A DNA stretch of 64,000 bases, taken from a virus. The translations under genes and the position numbers were made by a program. The notes below the pieces were generated by a model. It did no database searches and had not been told where the DNA came from. It worked only from the letters and a program-made list of their open reading frames with translations. The stretch's first letter is position 1, and every line of letters starts with the position of its first letter. The stretch lies in the IMG/VR virus record IMGVR_UViG_3300024262_003767. The stretch is one strand, 5' to 3'. This document shows positions 17,501-41,106 of the stretch, in pieces.

Positions 17501-18367
17501 ATGACGAAAGTAGATTACAAAACGAATTATATTGAACCTCAAGATTTTAACCTCTTAATTTCAAAATTAAGAGGATTTTTTATGGAAAATGGTTTCCTTG
17601 AGACATTTCCACAACCTAAATTAACAATACTTGCAGCGTGTGAAGACCCAAAAACTGTTAGAAGTTTTGAATTTGGTGGTGAAAAATTTCCACTACCCCA
17701 AACAAATCAGATGAACTTGGAAGAAGAACTTATGGTAGACTCAACAATAGATGGACTTTTTTGCTTAACAGCATCATATAGAGATGAACCAAACCCTATT
17801 GAAGGTCGCCACATGAAATCATTTCCAATGTTTGAAGCAGAACATAAAGGGGATTTTTCAAATCTAATACAAACAATAAGTGAGTGTTGTGTGTATTTAG
17901 GTTTAGTCGAAAAGGTTGCCGATATCCCAATATTCACATATGATGAACTTTGTGAACATTATAAAGTTGAAGATTTAACTTCTACTGAAGAAACATTGAT
18001 GTGTAAAGAATATGGTGATGTTGTCGCTATTACTATGTTTCCTGATAGGACAGATCCATTTTTCAACATGCGTGTTGATGGTTGTAACTTAAAAGGTGAA
18101 AAATTGTCCAACAAAGTAGATTTTATTGTTTGTGGACAGGAAACATTTGGTTGTGCTGAAAGAGAGATAGACATAAACTTAATGAGGAATAACTTCCACA
18201 CAATTAGTAATGGCGGGTATTCTGGACTATTATTTGAAAAATTTGGTAAGGAAAGAGTTGAAAAGGAATTGGAAGACTTTTTGAAATTGCCAATGATTGA
18301 AAGGTGGGGATTTGGTTGTGGTTTGACTAGATTATCAAGAGCAATGAAAAAGAAAGGATTAATTTAA
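17501..18367 (+). CDS. Class II aminoacyl-tRNA synthetase catalytic-core paralogue (EpmA/PoxA- or AsnA-like), no anticodon-binding domain
   Basis: Aligns block by block with E. coli EpmA: LLISKLRGFFMENGFLETFPQPKLT (motif 1 region), YRDEPNPIEGRHMKSFPMFEAE (motif 2, fRxE...H.pEFTMLE), RWGFGCGLTRLSRAM (motif 3, G.G.G.DR). Confidence 0.65.
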   Translation: MTKVDYKTNYIEPQDFNLLISKLRGFFMENGFLETFPQPKLTILAACEDPKTVRSFEFGGEKFPLPQTNQMNLEEELMVDSTIDGLFCLTASYRDEPNPIEGRHMKSFPMFEAEHKGDFSNLIQTISECCVYLGLVEKVADIPIFTYDELCEHYKVEDLTSTEETLMCKEYGDVVAITMFPDRTDPFFNMRVDGCNLKGEKLSNKVDFIVCGQETFGCAEREIDINLMRNNFHTISNGGYSGLLFEKFGKERVEKELEDFLKLPMIERWGFGCGLTRLSRAMKKKGLI

Positions 18368-24949: not shown

Positions 24950-25249
24950 TTACCTCTCTTTTTTTAATCGTTTTGTTTTTTGTTTTCGTAATTGCCTTCG
25001 TAATGCTTCAGTTGCCATATCAATTGAACGTTCAAAGTTTTCAGATTGTTTTTTTGAATATAAAGAACAACCTTGACAATTTAATTTAATTTCAACAATT
25101 TTATTTTCAGGTTTATTCCCTATTCCTAATATTACGTCAACATCTATAATATGTTGATGATGTTCTGTTAATTTTTTAATTTTTTCTTTTATAAAAAAAA
25201 CGAGTTTATTGTCTGTTTTAAAATGAACAGATTCAATGTTTAAATTCAT
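24950..25249 (-). CDS. hpf: Ribosome hibernation promoting factor (HPF/RaiA, short form)
   Basis: MNLNIESVHFKTDNKLVFFIKEKIKKLTEHHQHIIDVDVIL matches the HPF N-terminal fold consensus; 99 aa. Confidence 0.8.
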   Translation of the reverse strand: MNLNIESVHFKTDNKLVFFIKEKIKKLTEHHQHIIDVDVILGIGNKPENKIVEIKLNCQGCSLYSKKQSENFERSIDMATEALRRQLRKQKTKRLKKER

Positions 25250-26320: not shown

Positions 26321-26473
26321 CTATTTATCTTTTTTAGTCTCTTTGGTTTCCTTTTCTTCTTTCTTTTCAAGAACATCTTTAGCAACGTCTGTTCTCTTAG
26401 TTTTCTTTGCTGGCTTGTTGTACTTTTCACTATGTTCTGTGAAAGAAAGTAAGTTATTTAATTTATCTGCCAT
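26321..26473 (-). CDS. Small lysine-rich basic protein (50 aa), not in the ORF track
   Basis: Manual ORF MADKLNNLLSFTEHSEKYNKPAKKTKRTDVAKDVLEKKEEKETKETKKDK; preceded by a TATATATTAAAAA box on its strand; the overlapping plus ORF 26343..26525 looks spurious. Confidence 0.3.
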   Translation of the reverse strand: MADKLNNLLSFTEHSEKYNKPAKKTKRTDVAKDVLEKKEEKETKETKKDK

Positions 26474-26649
26474 TTCTTTGTTTTATTTTTTATTATATAT
26501 TAAAAATATAAACTCATTTTTATAGTCTATATATTAATATTTTTCTTTGTTTTTTCTAACTATCAGAAAAAAGAAAAAACTTATCATACACTTTTTTATA
26601 TATATTAGAAATTTAAACTATAAATGAAACATATTTATTCATACAAATC

Positions 26650-26760
26650 AGGTCTAACAGCGGATTTTTGTTTTAGTGGTTTTAAACAAAAATTCCGTAT
26701 ATGATTTGCTATATAGTTTAAAACCACTTCATTACGAGGTGGTTTTTTATTTTTAAAAAC
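26650..26760 (+). promoter_or_regulatory. Structured leader upstream of ORF 26773..27324: a 13-bp stem (about 26675-26687 with 26716-26728) and a mutually exclusive terminator-like hairpin plus T-run (about 26723-26750)
   Basis: Inverted repeat AGTGGTTTTAAAC / GTTTAAAACCACT; CCAC..GTGG followed by TTTTTT. Confidence 0.4.
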
Positions 26761-26772
26761 ATACTATAAAAA

Positions 26773-27324
26773 ATGGAACAATTAATTTGGAAAAAATGGA
26801 ATCGGGAAACTATTGATGATATCAATCAGTATGTCTTGGATTATGTAAAAAATGTTGATAGGAATGTTAAGATTATTGTTGGTTGTGACTCACATCCACA
26901 TAGAAGAAGATTAGTATATGCTGTCACTATTATTTTATATAATGAATCACTCAGAAAGGGTGCTCACGTTGTTTATGCTAAAGTAAAAATACCAAGATTG
27001 CGTGATGTTAGTGCAAAAATTAGAAAGGAAGCAGAATTTGTTTATACTGTTGCTGAATCCTTAGACCAAACATTAAGGGGCACTTACTATCATAAGTTTG
27101 ATAAAAATACTTACGATGATACTATCCCAACCAAATTAGTTGAAGTTCACGTTGATGTTAATCCTAAGAGAAACACAAGAAATGGTAGAAAATATTCAAA
27201 TAACTTATCTAATGATGTATATCAAGAAATTATGGGTTGGTTATGTGGTTCAGGTTTCAAGGTGTTCGCTAAACCACATGCGTATGGTTCAACTGGATCT
27301 GCGGATAAATTATCAAAAAGTTAA
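26773..27324 (+). CDS. Hypothetical protein (possible RNase-H-like YkuK/DUF458?)
   Basis: KIIVGCDSHPHRRRLVYAVTII block; weak. Confidence 0.25.
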   Translation: MEQLIWKKWNRETIDDINQYVLDYVKNVDRNVKIIVGCDSHPHRRRLVYAVTIILYNESLRKGAHVVYAKVKIPRLRDVSAKIRKEAEFVYTVAESLDQTLRGTYYHKFDKNTYDDTIPTKLVEVHVDVNPKRNTRNGRKYSNNLSNDVYQEIMGWLCGSGFKVFAKPHAYGSTGSADKLSKS

Positions 27325-27352
27325 ATTAAAAAGCCTAATTATATTAGGCTTT

Positions 27353-28216
27353 TTAATTTAATTCACCTTCCCAAACAATTTTATATTCATATTTACCTGG
27401 TAGTAGTATAATTTCTCTTTGATTTGTATGGTAATATTGTGTTGGTAATTTCTGTACGTCAACTAGTACATCTTTAGGTTGTACTTCCATCATAATAACA
27501 AAAGGTGGTGATGATGGTTGTTCATCCACAAATCTTCTAGCCACTAATATATTTGTAGTCCAAGATGTCGACATATTGAAATCGGATATAACTTTTTCAC
27601 CAACTTTGTATGGTGGGGTTTTTTTTGAAAAATGTTTTATTTGAACTTCTTCAATACCTTTATAAATCTTTAAAGGTTTATCTGGTTTAAAAGGTTTTAA
27701 TTCGTCTATAATATCTTGTGTTAATTTTGATAATAACAAAGAGCCAGAACCTATATATGAATATAACCAATCATCAGTTTTTTCAGATAATTCAACATTT
27801 ATCCTTTCAGGTGTATGTTTATCATATTTAGTAAATCCTCCAATGTAACGAAAAGATATCACATCTCCATTTTTAATTCTTGCTAACCATTCACCTGTTA
27901 TTGAATGTTTATAAAAATAACCAGAATAATCATCAACATCAACTTCTTCATCTTCACTAAATCCAAAAAAATCTACAATTTGTTTATATAGAGGTTTTTT
28001 TGTTTTAATTTGATAGATATATTCACTATTTATATCAGATGCGTCTGCTCTATTTGTTAAATAGATTCTTTTTAAATGATTTAGATTACTAAAATCTATA
28101 TCTTCTAATTTTAATGGTTCATCAGAATATAAATATAAATTTCCATTATATGTTTTTTGATCGTAATCTACTTCATTATAATCTACAAGTTCAAATAATT
28201 TGAATTTAGTTATCAT
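27353..28216 (-). CDS. Hypothetical protein with a possible C-terminal ADP-ribosyltransferase-like domain
   Basis: FNMSTSWTT (STS) followed about 55 aa later by NQREIILLPG (Q-x-E); upstream IYKG in the position of the YRG Arg; overlaps the CCA-enzyme gene by 11 nt. Confidence 0.3.
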   Translation of the reverse strand: MITKFKLFELVDYNEVDYDQKTYNGNLYLYSDEPLKLEDIDFSNLNHLKRIYLTNRADASDINSEYIYQIKTKKPLYKQIVDFFGFSEDEEVDVDDYSGYFYKHSITGEWLARIKNGDVISFRYIGGFTKYDKHTPERINVELSEKTDDWLYSYIGSGSLLLSKLTQDIIDELKPFKPDKPLKIYKGIEEVQIKHFSKKTPPYKVGEKVISDFNMSTSWTTNILVARRFVDEQPSSPPFVIMMEVQPKDVLVDVQKLPTQYYHTNQREIILLPGKYEYKIVWEGELN

Positions 28217-29465
28217 TCATAAGATATTCATTTTTGAAACGCACAATCTCTCGTCTTTTCTTTTCTATTTCAATTTCAATTCCTTTGAAACCTTCAGCAG
28301 CTAAATCATTACCATTAACCACAAATCCATCATTACAATAATCAACAAATGGTTTATAGAATTCTTCACCCAAAAACTCATAAATTAAATCATCATCAAT
28401 ATGATATTGATTTTTCATTTTAGCCAAACCGTAAACATTTGAAACGTCAATGTTTTTAAATGATTTCCAATGTAAATCTAATTCCTTCTCAAGTTTGAGC
28501 AAAAATTCAATCTGGTTCACTAACTTGGAACTAAATTTCAATTCACTAATCATATATTTTCTCAATTTACGAATATCATTATCACGAAGTAAATGTGCAA
28601 ATAATATTGCGGAAATAGGTTTTGGTGTAAATCCATCGGGAGATATTTTCAATTTGGGAAACATTTGTTCCCACATATCATATTCAGTTAATAGTCTGAT
28701 ATAATTTTCTAATATTTTGTTTCCGCCTTTTTCTGCGTGTTCAATTACCTTATTCCATTCTTCATGTATTCTTTCTTGTGATACATCTTCTTTGGTACTT
28801 ATACCACGTAGTCTGTTATCACTTTTAATGGCTCTTGATGTCTCAGGTGATATGATACCACCTTTTCTACCTTGGGCTCTTGCAGCGAATCTAAATACTC
28901 TTAAAATTCTTAATCTATCTTCTTTAAATCTCTCAGCAGGATCACCAACAGCACGTATAACATTATTTTCAATATCTTTAACTCCACCAACCAAATCTAC
29001 AATTTCTTTTTTATTTATATCATAGAAAAGAGCATTGATAGTTAAATCTCTACGTTTAACATCATCTTCGATTGTAATATGGTTTCCAATTTCTACTTTA
29101 TCATCATCACCTTTTGTATCTCTACCTCCAGAAATATCTTTTCTAAAAGTTGCTAATTCGTGTCCGAGTGGTTCATCTTCAGTATAAATTCTAAGTACGC
29201 CAAAATTTTTACCTTGTTCATCAGAAACATTCCAACCTTTCAAAATTCTTTTACTTTCTTCTGGTAGAGCATTTGTGACTAAATCAAAATCATGTGGTAT
29301 CTTTTTTTGCAAAAAATCACGAACCGCTCCACCAACAACATAGATATCTTTACCAGCATTATTGAAGGCTCTTGATATTTCTTTAATGTCATAAGGAATA
29401 GGCATCTCAACAGAGATAGTATTTTCAGTTATAAATTCTAAATATTTTTTTAATTTTTCTACCAT
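28206..29465 (-). CDS. cca: tRNA nucleotidyltransferase (class II CCA-adding enzyme / polyA-polymerase head domain)
   Basis: VVGGAVRDFLQKKIPHDFDLV (GGxVRD...DxD) and RRDLTINALFYD motifs. Confidence 0.85.
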   Translation of the reverse strand: MVEKLKKYLEFITENTISVEMPIPYDIKEISRAFNNAGKDIYVVGGAVRDFLQKKIPHDFDLVTNALPEESKRILKGWNVSDEQGKNFGVLRIYTEDEPLGHELATFRKDISGGRDTKGDDDKVEIGNHITIEDDVKRRDLTINALFYDINKKEIVDLVGGVKDIENNVIRAVGDPAERFKEDRLRILRVFRFAARAQGRKGGIISPETSRAIKSDNRLRGISTKEDVSQERIHEEWNKVIEHAEKGGNKILENYIRLLTEYDMWEQMFPKLKISPDGFTPKPISAILFAHLLRDNDIRKLRKYMISELKFSSKLVNQIEFLLKLEKELDLHWKSFKNIDVSNVYGLAKMKNQYHIDDDLIYEFLGEEFYKPFVDYCNDGFVVNGNDLAAEGFKGIEIEIEKKRREIVRFKNEYLMNDN

Positions 29466-29485
29466 TTTACAAAGATAAGGTTTTT

Positions 29486-29520
29486 CTGTTTACATTTTTT
29501 ATATATATTAAAAAGAATTT
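29486..29520. promoter_or_regulatory. Example of the recurring TATATAT(T)AAA upstream box, here in a divergent intergenic region
   Basis: TTTTTTATATATATTAAAAAGAAT between divergent starts 29465(-) and 29530(+). Similar boxes occur about 10-65 nt upstream of ORF starts near 3175(-), 6491(-), 11070(-)/11121(+), 15514(-)/15605(+), 17501(+), 19362(-), 25974(-), 26473(-), 38334(-), 44050(-)/44140(+), 56407(-), 62968(+). Confidence 0.45.
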
Positions 29521-29529
29521 TTTAGTTTC

Positions 29530-39975: not shown

Positions 39976-41106
39976 TTATTCCTCTTTTTCTTTAACTAAG
40001 TTAAGATATATCTTTCTATCATCTTTGATAACAGAAATAACCTTAACTTTTACTTGATCACCTTTCGTTAATTTGGCATTATTCTTCACAAGGTATGTGG
40101 TTTGTATTAACCCCATAGTTTCATAGTCAAGTGAAATTAATGCTCCAAAATTTTTCACATCAATTACTTTTCCTGATAATATTTTACCTACTTTAATTTT
40201 ATCCCAAAGAGACTCTTTTAAAGATTGTGTTAGTATAATCTTTTGACTTTTTGTGATTTCCTTAACATAAAAATCAATTGCCATACCAGGTAGGATTTGG
40301 TGCCATCTATCTTGCCACTCAGTATTTATGTTCATTTTATGAATCATACCTGTAAGACAATTATTGAATTGAACAAATACTCCAAATGGTGTTGTTCCAG
40401 TAACTTCGCCTGCATAAACGACATCATTTTTTAGTTTTTTGATCTCTTCTGGTATAAGTGTCTTAAGATATTTTCTTCGTGAAACAACATAAACCCCCTT
40501 TTCTTGTTGCAATGTCTCTAACATCACATTTAGAGTTTCACCAATAATTGATTCAGGATTTGCGAGTTTATTAACATCAGCTAATGTATTTGGCATAAAC
40601 GCATCGATAGTTACATTATCCATATAAATATCAAGCATATAGCCTGCTGGTATTAATTCCTTCACCTTAGCAACAAGTGATAATCTTTCTTCATAATAAG
40701 TTTTCAATTTATTATGAACATTCATTTTAATTAATTCTGTAATAGATCCTCTTATTAAGAATGGATCGTCTTGAATTGATGTTATTAGTACATCAATTTG
40801 TGAACCAGGCTCTAACCCTATCACTAATTTTCCTTTTGGTGTGTCAACATAAATGTAGTCTTTATACCCAAAATCAACAGTTATTTCTGTATCATCTATA
40901 GATACTATCACACCTTTGATTATTTCCCCTTCTCTTACTTCTCTTAAATCAAGAAAAGTTTTTTCCATCATACGATAAAGATTTTGATAATCTTCAGTAA
41001 GATTAGATAAATCACCTTTTACTTTGATTATTTCTCTATCATTAGTTAGAAACGGAAAAGGATCAGGAAGTGATCCTACATTTACGCCTTCGATTAATTT
41101 CGACAT
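39976..41106 (-). CDS. rpsA: Ribosomal protein S1-like (multi-S1-domain RNA-binding protein)
   Basis: Three to four S1 repeats: GEIIKGVIVSIDD, GEVTGTTPFGVFVQF, GKILSGKVIDVKNFGALISLD...KGDQVKVKVISV. Confidence 0.7.
   Translation of the reverse strand: MSKLIEGVNVGSLPDPFPFLTNDREIIKVKGDLSNLTEDYQNLYRMMEKTFLDLREVREGEIIKGVIVSIDDTEITVDFGYKDYIYVDTPKGKLVIGLEPGSQIDVLITSIQDDPFLIRGSITELIKMNVHNKLKTYYEERLSLVAKVKELIPAGYMLDIYMDNVTIDAFMPNTLADVNKLANPESIIGETLNVMLETLQQEKGVYVVSRRKYLKTLIPEEIKKLKNDVVYAGEVTGTTPFGVFVQFNNCLTGMIHKMNINTEWQDRWHQILPGMAIDFYVKEITKSQKIILTQSLKESLWDKIKVGKILSGKVIDVKNFGALISLDYETMGLIQTTYLVKNNAKLTKGDQVKVKVISVIKDDRKIYLNLVKEKEE

Follow-up and report, generated by a model that had tools for sequence, protein, structure and literature searches.

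A Putative Terminator/Antiterminator Switch With a Conserved Short Reading Frame Precedes a DUF458 Gene in Viral DNA

Introduction

We analysed a 64,000-nt stretch of viral DNA, IMG/VR record IMGVR_UViG_3300024262_003767 (called the window below, always at its full length), in which a spacer between two divergent genes can form two alternative RNA hairpins directly before a gene for a DUF458/YkuK protein, a family known only as a predicted RNase H-like fold (PMC3985635). The locus raises two questions: whether these hairpins control transcription of the DUF458 gene, and, if they do, what the control responds to. A preliminary description of this DNA had treated the leader as a “240-nt non-coding region” with the architecture of either an antiterminator/terminator switch or a small structured RNA. 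It had overlooked a 26-codon open reading frame inside the region, a short frame that is conserved in relatives and that we call the upstream open reading frame (uORF). From a comparison of related loci we argue that the leader is probably a cis-acting terminator/antiterminator switch for the DUF458 gene; that translation of the uORF is the input of this switch, as in ribosome-mediated attenuation of transcription, is a reading that we hold with about even confidence.

Results

Two Hairpins Share One Arm Before the DUF458 Gene

As previously claimed, the arms of the 13-bp perfect stem, AGTGGTTTTAAAC and GTTTAAAACCACT, are exact reverse complements enclosing a 28-nt loop, and the terminator-like hairpin (AAAACCACTTC/GAGGTGGTTTT, then TTTTTTATTTTT), which was also found by a consensus terminator scan, ends 25 nt before the ATG of the DUF458 gene (Table 1). 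Positions 26720-26728 are common to both structures, so the two cannot form together, and the mutual exclusion proposed for them is borne out. With their composition matched to that of the window, shuffles yield 0.44 k-mer hits for perfect inverted repeats that are 13 bp or longer and have a loop of at most 40 nt; among the window's own repeats of this kind the 13-bp stem is the only large-loop case, the rest being short-loop terminator hairpins. RNA folding, which had been suggested as a check, gave a mixed outcome: the 243-nt region folds better than its shuffles (z = -4.4, with 0 of 200 shuffles as good; z = -3.8 for the other strand), but the 13-bp stem is absent from the minimum-free-energy fold. 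We took the plus strand as the relevant one because the T-run, the promoter-like box, and the orientation of the gene point there. Judged from its sequence, the hairpin with its T-run would act as a terminator.

Table 1. Features of the leader and of the two genes that flank it (window coordinates; for helices and hairpins the two paired strands are separated by a slash).
Feature	Position	Strand	Sequence or remark
Spacer between the two divergent genes	26474-26772		
Lysine-rich small protein gene (divergent neighbour)	26321-26473	-	50 aa; shares the spacer, not part of the switch
Promoter-like box	26575-26606	+	AAAAACTTA (26575-26583), 14-nt spacer, TATATATAT (26598-26606); conserved in nearly all related loci
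Helix P1	26612-26622 / 26712-26722	+	5′ strand UUUAAACUAUA, in the 5′ untranslated region (5′ UTR); from the minimum-free-energy fold
uORF (putative leader peptide)	26624-26704	+	26 codons and TGA; peptide MKHIYSYKSGLTADFCFSGFKQKFRI; frame open in 38/38 leaders
Hairpin H0	26624-26628 / 26638-26642	+	holds the uORF AUG
Helix P3	26644-26650 / 26702-26708	+	81.5% of cells paired in group A
Hairpin H1	26661-26673 / 26684-26697	+	follows H0 and stacks on P3
Antiterminator 5′ arm	26675-26687	+	AGUGGUUUUAAAC; uORF codons 18-22; exact complement of 26716-26728
Antiterminator 3′ arm	26716-26728	+	GUUUAAAACCACU; shares positions with the P1 3′ strand (26712-26722) and with the terminator 5′ arm (26720-26730)
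Intrinsic-terminator-like hairpin and T-run	26720-26754	+	26720-26730 / 26736-26746, loop AUUAC, then UUUUUUAUUUUU; terminator scan
DUF458/YkuK gene (regulated gene)	26773-27324	+	183-aa RNase H-like protein; Pfam PF04308, E = 2e-23

The Pairing Is Conserved and Co-varies in Related Loci

Searches with the DUF458 protein found 41 homologues in metagenomes (E < 1e-10), and we assembled 97 loci from scans of metagenome, viral, and genome collections together with contig look-ups; a DNA-level search of a phage collection gave no nucleotide match. By their upstream regions the loci fall into four kinds. Group A (the window, L002-L006, L084, L085, L087, L091, and L092; protein identity 72-92%) has a leader like that of the window, and group B (about 27 distinct sequences including L094; 53-63%) has the same architecture with diverged sequence. 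A third kind (L027, L040, L042, L063, and L089; 53-76%) has no leader, and here the box AAACTTA-N10-12-AATATATA stands straight before the gene, 25-35 nt from its ATG; the remaining, distant homologues (about 40%) are preceded by an upstream gene and its terminator. About 38 leaders, with DUF458 proteins that are only 53-92% identical, retain the promoter box together with the uORF, the alternative hairpins, the T-run, and the gene. Since the leaderless relatives have the same box directly before the gene, the box goes with the gene, and the leader is an insert placed between them. It occurs once per locus and solely before the DUF458 gene; nhmmer found no copies before other genes, and LR756502 and LR745206, two relatives of 630-640 kb, carry distant DUF458 homologues with no leader. 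The suggested Rfam scan, run on the window and on 20 related loci, matched none of 4227 families at the gathering threshold, and with relaxed settings it brought up chance sub-threshold microRNA-like hits only (e.g., mir-203 at 32 bits against a threshold of 65); ARAGORN found no tRNA or tmRNA genes in the window. The absence of an Rfam match and the confinement of the element to a cis position before this one gene disfavour the alternative of a small structured RNA.

In every leader of groups A and B the hairpin and T-run occupy the same position. In group A, 95% of the cells of the terminator hairpin are paired, and for the 13-bp stem the figure is 91.2%, against 39-62% in slid controls, with two compensatory pairs (UA to GC in L005 and UA to CG in L092). 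For example, L005 has GGGAUU with AACCCC, a change that is matched in the terminator 3′ arm, and in L092 GUGGUUUC pairs with GAAACCAC. In group B the antiterminator arm is a box at the end of the uORF, whose letters vary with the type of terminator: GGTG is found in the upstream box of all 13 leaders with CCACC terminators; it is absent from all six with CCACTT terminators, which instead have TGTAAGTG, complementary to CACTTACA; and CCAT-type terminators have GATGG(C) or AGATGGCAT upstream. Single-register column counts for group B gave 89% and 75% paired, compared with 18-62% for slid registers. RNAalifold, run on the MAFFT alignment of group B, recovers the terminator only, with compensatory changes in four of the seven terminator pairs of the consensus.

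Per-sequence duplex energies compared with shuffles were weak for the 5-bp pairings of group B (mean z = -1.2), so we compared cognate with non-cognate duplexes instead. The 48 nt that surround the uORF stop form a duplex of -9.18 kcal/mol with the terminator 5′ half of their own leader and of -7.09 kcal/mol with those of other leaders (0 of 20,000 permutations; 22 representatives), and the control, which used the first 45 nt of the uORF at the same relatedness, gave p = 0.13. An earlier cognate test on the group B alignment had given p < 2e-4, and there none of six other segment pairs reached significance. Across the family the antiterminator arm lies at about -30 to +14 nt of the uORF stop; in the window it ends 15 nt before the stop, which is borderline for occlusion by a terminating ribosome. 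At the level that comparative sequence analysis allows, the antiterminator/terminator pair is established: the pairing proposed from one sequence is conserved in related genomes, and the exclusive hairpins co-vary there, in line with the switch architecture of the preliminary description. Two loci differ from the other members of group B; in L008 and L066 a uORF segment, GCUCAUAUAU(UA), is complementary to a stretch just before and inside the terminator (AUAUGCAUGAGC), which may be a third way of wiring the switch.

A Short Frame Is Kept Open in the Leaders

The leaders of groups A and B all start a frame with ATG at one common position, and the frame runs for 18-28 codons (for L087 and L088, see Discussion); gene callers annotated it in no relative. 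Frame 0 from the conserved ATG has a median of 24.5 open codons and a minimum of 18 in the 38 leaders, and frames +1 and +2 close at medians of 0 and 7.5. Shuffled leaders stay open for at least 18 codons about 0.21 of the time per sequence, giving a product of 1e-16 over 23 divergent representatives; for eight independent lineages alone, the chance of open frames is about 4e-6. In addition, in-frame indels separate the uORFs of close relatives, and the distance from the stop to the terminator 5′ arm is 13-33 nt throughout. Similar to the ordinary genes of the window, whose start regions are A-rich with almost no G and no Shine-Dalgarno signal, the uORF begins in an A-rich context with no Shine-Dalgarno sequence; its ATG is 26 nt from the start of the TATATA box, and the spacing of 20-26 nt is that seen in ordinary genes of this genome. 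On these comparisons, the frame has been under selection to stay open.

The sequence of the peptide, by contrast, is not conserved, and it is not under amino-acid selection. Substitutions are even over the codon positions (114/88/95), with no third-position excess, and synonymous changes are slightly commoner in frame 0 (42/207) than in the other frames (28/198 and 30/208). A conserved nucleotide box, GGTGTAAGTGA, is read in differing frames among loci. The composition is unlike that of the phage proteins, with Cys up 3.6-fold, His up 2.4-fold, Glu at 0.17-fold, and Arg and Ser also up. Because an open frame is kept with no conserved product, the uORF fits the pattern of a regulatory leader peptide. 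We ruled out a functional micropeptide as the principal explanation (no third-position excess, and the odd composition), and also an amino-acid-specific attenuator (no codon run) and the sensing of queuosine-dependent tRNAs (Tyr, His, Asn, Asp), of whose amino acids only His is enriched and Asp is depleted.

Upstream Helices Probably Bury the Antiterminator Arm in Group A

The minimum-free-energy fold of the window's leader is a three-way junction plus the terminator, at -35.6 kcal/mol; with the 13-bp stem enforced the energy is -23.5 kcal/mol. The outer helix P1 has 89% of its cells paired in group A, with matched changes (CUAUA/UAUAG, CUAAUA/UAUUAG, and CUAAAA/UUUUAG). The loop and 3′ arm of H1 enclose most of the antiterminator 5′ arm; H1 is paired in 83.5% of cells in group A, with 2 compensatory pairs, and in L087 it changes from GGAU../..AUUCC to GGUAU../..AUACC; the changes are compensatory and lead to two amino-acid replacements (D to Y and F to Y). 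Overall, the upstream helices of group A have 87% of cells paired, against 40-53% in slid controls. Of the folds predicted for group B, about half join the conserved AAUAUUCACAUACA, at uORF codons 4-8, to the box UGUAAGUGAUAUU. A family-wide cognate test of the 5′ UTR with the pre-terminator spacer was not significant (p = 0.19). We do not claim a middle hairpin, P2, which some loci form strongly and others lack. Group A thus likely has an anti-antiterminator, with H1 as the candidate, but elsewhere its presence is uncertain; the comparison suggests that the upstream wiring changed between groups A and B while uORF, antiterminator, and terminator stayed.

Promoter-Like Boxes of the Spacer

The box that precedes the uORF probably serves as a promoter, to judge from its position and conservation. 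In its full form it is scarce in the window (2 exact matches), and in most group A members there is no promoter-like box 3′ of the terminator. The TATATA part, of which 26598-26606 is an example, is a general promoter-like element of this genome: its occurrences peak 21-40 nt 5′ of gene starts (27 of the 62 occurrences within 120 nt of 68 genes). Two members have a Shine-Dalgarno-like sequence, AAAGGA before the DUF458 ATG in L093 and AAAGGAAAAACAATG in L005.

The opposite strand of the spacer had been described as carrying a TATATATTAAAAA box that drives a 50-aa lysine-rich ORF. The ORF is conserved, and its TATATA box (26494-26499, minus strand) lies 26 nt 5′ of its ATG, the usual place in this genome; the TATATATTAAAAA box, however, is at 26494-26506, outside the 26530-26772 interval to which it had been assigned. 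Relatives have the lysine-rich gene called at 47-61 aa, with 68-85% identity and an invariant core FT.H.EKY.K.AKKTKRT.VAKD.LEKK; the protein had no family match. On the minus strand of the spacer (26527-26552 and 26500-26520) we also observed a second box of the same type as that before the uORF, AAACAAAGAAAAATATTAATATATAG, followed by a 5-codon mini-ORF (ATG AGT TTA TAT TTT TAA) and then the TATATA box of the lysine-rich gene; the putative divergent promoters of the spacer are arranged back to back. A similar box, AAACTAAAAAATTCTTTTTAATATATA, precedes the gene of the CCA-adding enzyme (29466-29528, minus strand), followed by an ATG-TAA start-stop pair before the real start.

Genomic Context

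The window encodes a ClpB-like ATPase, a hybrid histidine kinase, an S1-domain protein, a NAPRTase, an M16 peptidase, an SPFH protein, a ribosome hibernation factor, a CCA-adding enzyme, and GDP-sugar enzymes. The ClpB-like protein shares 60% identity with its counterparts in two uncultured phages of 635-642 kb; related DUF458 loci are found on IMG/VR contigs of up to 501 kb, and three further DUF458 loci are on contigs binned with Muribaculaceae or Bacteroidetes genomes. The source lineage is probably one of huge phages infecting Bacteroidota, a host assignment that we infer. It was reported that huge phages with S1-like proteins rarely use Shine-Dalgarno sites and that their largest clade is predicted to infect Bacteroidetes (PMC7162821), and the start-signal pattern of the window's genes agrees with this report.

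Translation-related genes are found around the locus (an S30AE hibernation factor at 24950-25249, the CCA-adding enzyme at 28206-29465, and the S1-domain protein at 39976-41106), and L084 has a fragment of a class II aminoacyl-tRNA synthetase nearby. No solved structure or NCBIfam name was found for the DUF458 protein and its neighbours. Between the DUF458 gene and the convergent ORF at 27353-28216 there is a 19-bp perfect hairpin flanked by A- and T-runs (27321-27361), which resembles a bidirectional terminator; the window has about eight long perfect hairpins of that sort (e.g., near 18347, 39922, 46900, 52130, and 63779). IS605 OrfB/TnpB-like genes adjoin the DUF458 gene in two unrelated loci (L001, 3557-4720; L089, 1-346).

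Discussion

How the Switch Could Work

Transcription would begin a few nucleotides past the TATATA box, with the 26-codon uORF as the first element on the transcript. In RNA left to itself the junction (P1, H0, and H1 stacked on P3) would form first, burying the uORF start and the antiterminator 5′ arm; in predicted folds of the nascent RNA the junction does precede the terminator. With the arm buried, the terminator would form and transcription would stop at the U-run 25 nt before the gene, a default OFF state. A ribosome at the uORF stop would cover or sterically block the arm in group B, L085, and L092, giving OFF again; in the window it would sit exactly between the two arms, where it fits because the 28-nt loop equals the footprint of a ribosome, and the outcome would likewise be OFF. 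A ribosome held earlier in the uORF, on the other hand, would melt the junction and leave the arm free, and the free arm would capture the terminator 5′ arm once that is made, permitting read-through into the nuclease-like gene (ON). From the layout of the sequence elements we propose where transcription starts, that it terminates, that the uORF is translated, which way the logic runs, and where a ribosome would stall. The most likely signal would be a stalling of ribosomes in general, or slowed translation, in the infected cell, rather than scarcity of a single amino acid. We suggest, tentatively and as a reading more likely wrong than right, that the leader is a phage-borne sensor of ribosome state, in which ribosomes that stall or lag behind RNA polymerase (through defences that hit tRNAs or ribosomes, or through hibernation) switch on an RNase H-like nuclease.

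Several observations weigh against this scheme. Folds that include the 13-bp stem are all less stable than the OFF fold, the best of them by 12 kcal/mol, and when segments of the uORF were blocked in silico, P1 and the terminator were still predicted; because the energy gap and P1 keep the terminator favoured, the ON state would need kinetic trapping or capture, or queued ribosomes (more than one). The single-register counts of group B include few compensatory changes, which can be put down to the use of different registers in different clades. A family-wide cognate test of the upstream region with the antiterminator arm was not significant (p = 0.07-0.09). The leader has no run of one regulatory codon. 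In L087 (2857-2859) and in L088, which is identical to it and comes from a different sample, ACG replaces the uORF ATG, although the frame is still open and an in-frame ATG follows 11 codons on; and L093 (170-275) has the promoter box and a plain AU-rich hairpin with a T-run, with no uORF. To our knowledge, moreover, coupling of transcription to translation has not been established in the presumed host phylum.

Alternative Explanations

Some of these same observations would be accommodated by a riboswitch or a factor-controlled attenuator, in which the junction is an aptamer or protein site, a ligand or protein either stabilises it (and the terminator forms) or frees the antiterminator arm, and the uORF is secondary or modulating. 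A leader as strongly structured as this one (z = -4.4), with helices kept in group A, would be expected of such an element, as would conservation at the level of nucleotides instead of the peptide, the reading of the box GGTGTAAGTGA in different frames by locus, and the loss of the uORF ATG in L087 and L088; and in the standard layout of riboswitches the 3′ strand of the closing helix competes with the terminator arm, as it would here. Left unexplained, however, are the frame that all 38 leaders keep open and the constant closeness of its stop to the antiterminator arm; none of the 4227 Rfam families matches the window or the 20 related loci, RNAalifold shows no conserved aptamer-like core in group B, the middle hairpin is inconsistent between loci, and the upstream helices of groups A and B are wired differently. 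We regard this explanation as unlikely, though it is the strongest of the three considered here.

The leader could also be an independent small gene, for a micropeptide or a small RNA, that has a promoter and a terminator to itself; expression of the DUF458 gene would in that case depend on leaky read-through or on a weak internal promoter, and the alternative pairing would do no more than tune RNA stability. Its short transcript of about 135 nt would be stable and structured and have a good terminator end, and a TATATA-like stretch just before the terminator, in the window and in many group B leaders, is a possible internal promoter. That stretch is absent in most group A members, though, where the segment co-varies with the 5′ UTR; the peptide is unconserved and odd in composition; the unit is never found apart from the DUF458 gene; and the co-variation of the near-stop region with the terminator 5′ arm would have no role, so that we consider a small gene quite improbable. 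More improbable still is processive antitermination of the lambda Q/tR′ type, with the box as the loading site for a phage factor and the short transcript as a by-product. A terminator close to a promoter does resemble pR′-tR′, the AAAAACTTA-N-TATATA box is gene-specific and strongly conserved, and L093 keeps promoter and terminator with no uORF or obvious antiterminator; but the same box occurs in loci that lack any terminator, and is thus not tied to antitermination, the antiterminator co-variation and the conserved open frame are unexplained, and no Q-like gene was seen adjoining the locus, though no search for one was made.

Comparison With Known Systems

Leader-peptide attenuation is textbook knowledge for bacterial amino-acid operons and for some resistance genes. 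Similar to the amino-acid-operon leaders with which we compared it (trpL, hisL, pheL, thrL, and leuL; Trp_leader, His_leader, and others in Rfam), the phage leader places a short ORF close to the promoter-like box and an intrinsic-terminator-like hairpin directly 5′ of the gene; its antiterminator uses the 5′ arm of that hairpin, and its stop is so placed that a terminating ribosome would occlude the antiterminator arm. An upstream helix that would sequester the arm when there is no translation is likely in group A and uncertain elsewhere. Unlike them, it has no codon run for one amino acid, its target is a nuclease-like gene and not a biosynthetic operon, it matches no Rfam leader family in sequence or structure, its uORF has no Shine-Dalgarno sequence (an almost leaderless start is possible in group B), and in group A the extra outer helix P1 joins the 5′ UTR to the pre-terminator segment. 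We see an even chance that the leader works like a leader-peptide attenuator, one that is phage-borne, has no Shine-Dalgarno sequence and no amino-acid theme, and acts on a nuclease-like target.

The attenuators of bacterial resistance genes that respond to translation stress or antibiotics (ermK, vmlR of B. subtilis, lmo0919 of Listeria, and other ARE-ABCF leaders) are alike in having a short uORF with no amino-acid theme; there as here, a stalled ribosome would shift the balance of terminator and antiterminator, and the signal would be the state of the ribosome and not a metabolite. Their uORFs are usually shorter, whereas the present one has 18-28 codons and is carried by a phage, and the likeness is one of architecture. 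Terminating riboswitches share the structured 5′ domain, the competition of its closing strand with the terminator arm, and the cis-acting position in one copy directly before the gene; they differ in that here there is no Rfam match, no conserved junction core was found, and an open frame runs through the whole “aptamer”. With pR′-tR′ and Q of lambda the leader shares a phage promoter closely before a strong terminator that has to be overcome, and a short terminated RNA would be expected; the lambda switch, however, is a protein acting on RNA polymerase at the promoter, whereas here an RNA antiterminator co-varies with the terminator and accompanies a conserved ORF.

Significance

We found no description of a leader-peptide attenuator in a phage in the literature searched. 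If the proposed reading is true, this would be the first one described, and it would work with no Shine-Dalgarno sequence in a host of the Bacteroidota type. With the leader, Rfam lacks an RNA element of about 135 nt, and the annotation of every relative lacks a short ORF that gene callers missed; for the uncharacterised DUF458/YkuK family the leader offers a first point of entry at the level of regulation. Translation-related genes are a known feature of huge phages (PMC7162821), and a switch through which the translation of a short frame sets the transcription of a nuclease-like gene would be a concrete instance of such phages monitoring translation in the host.

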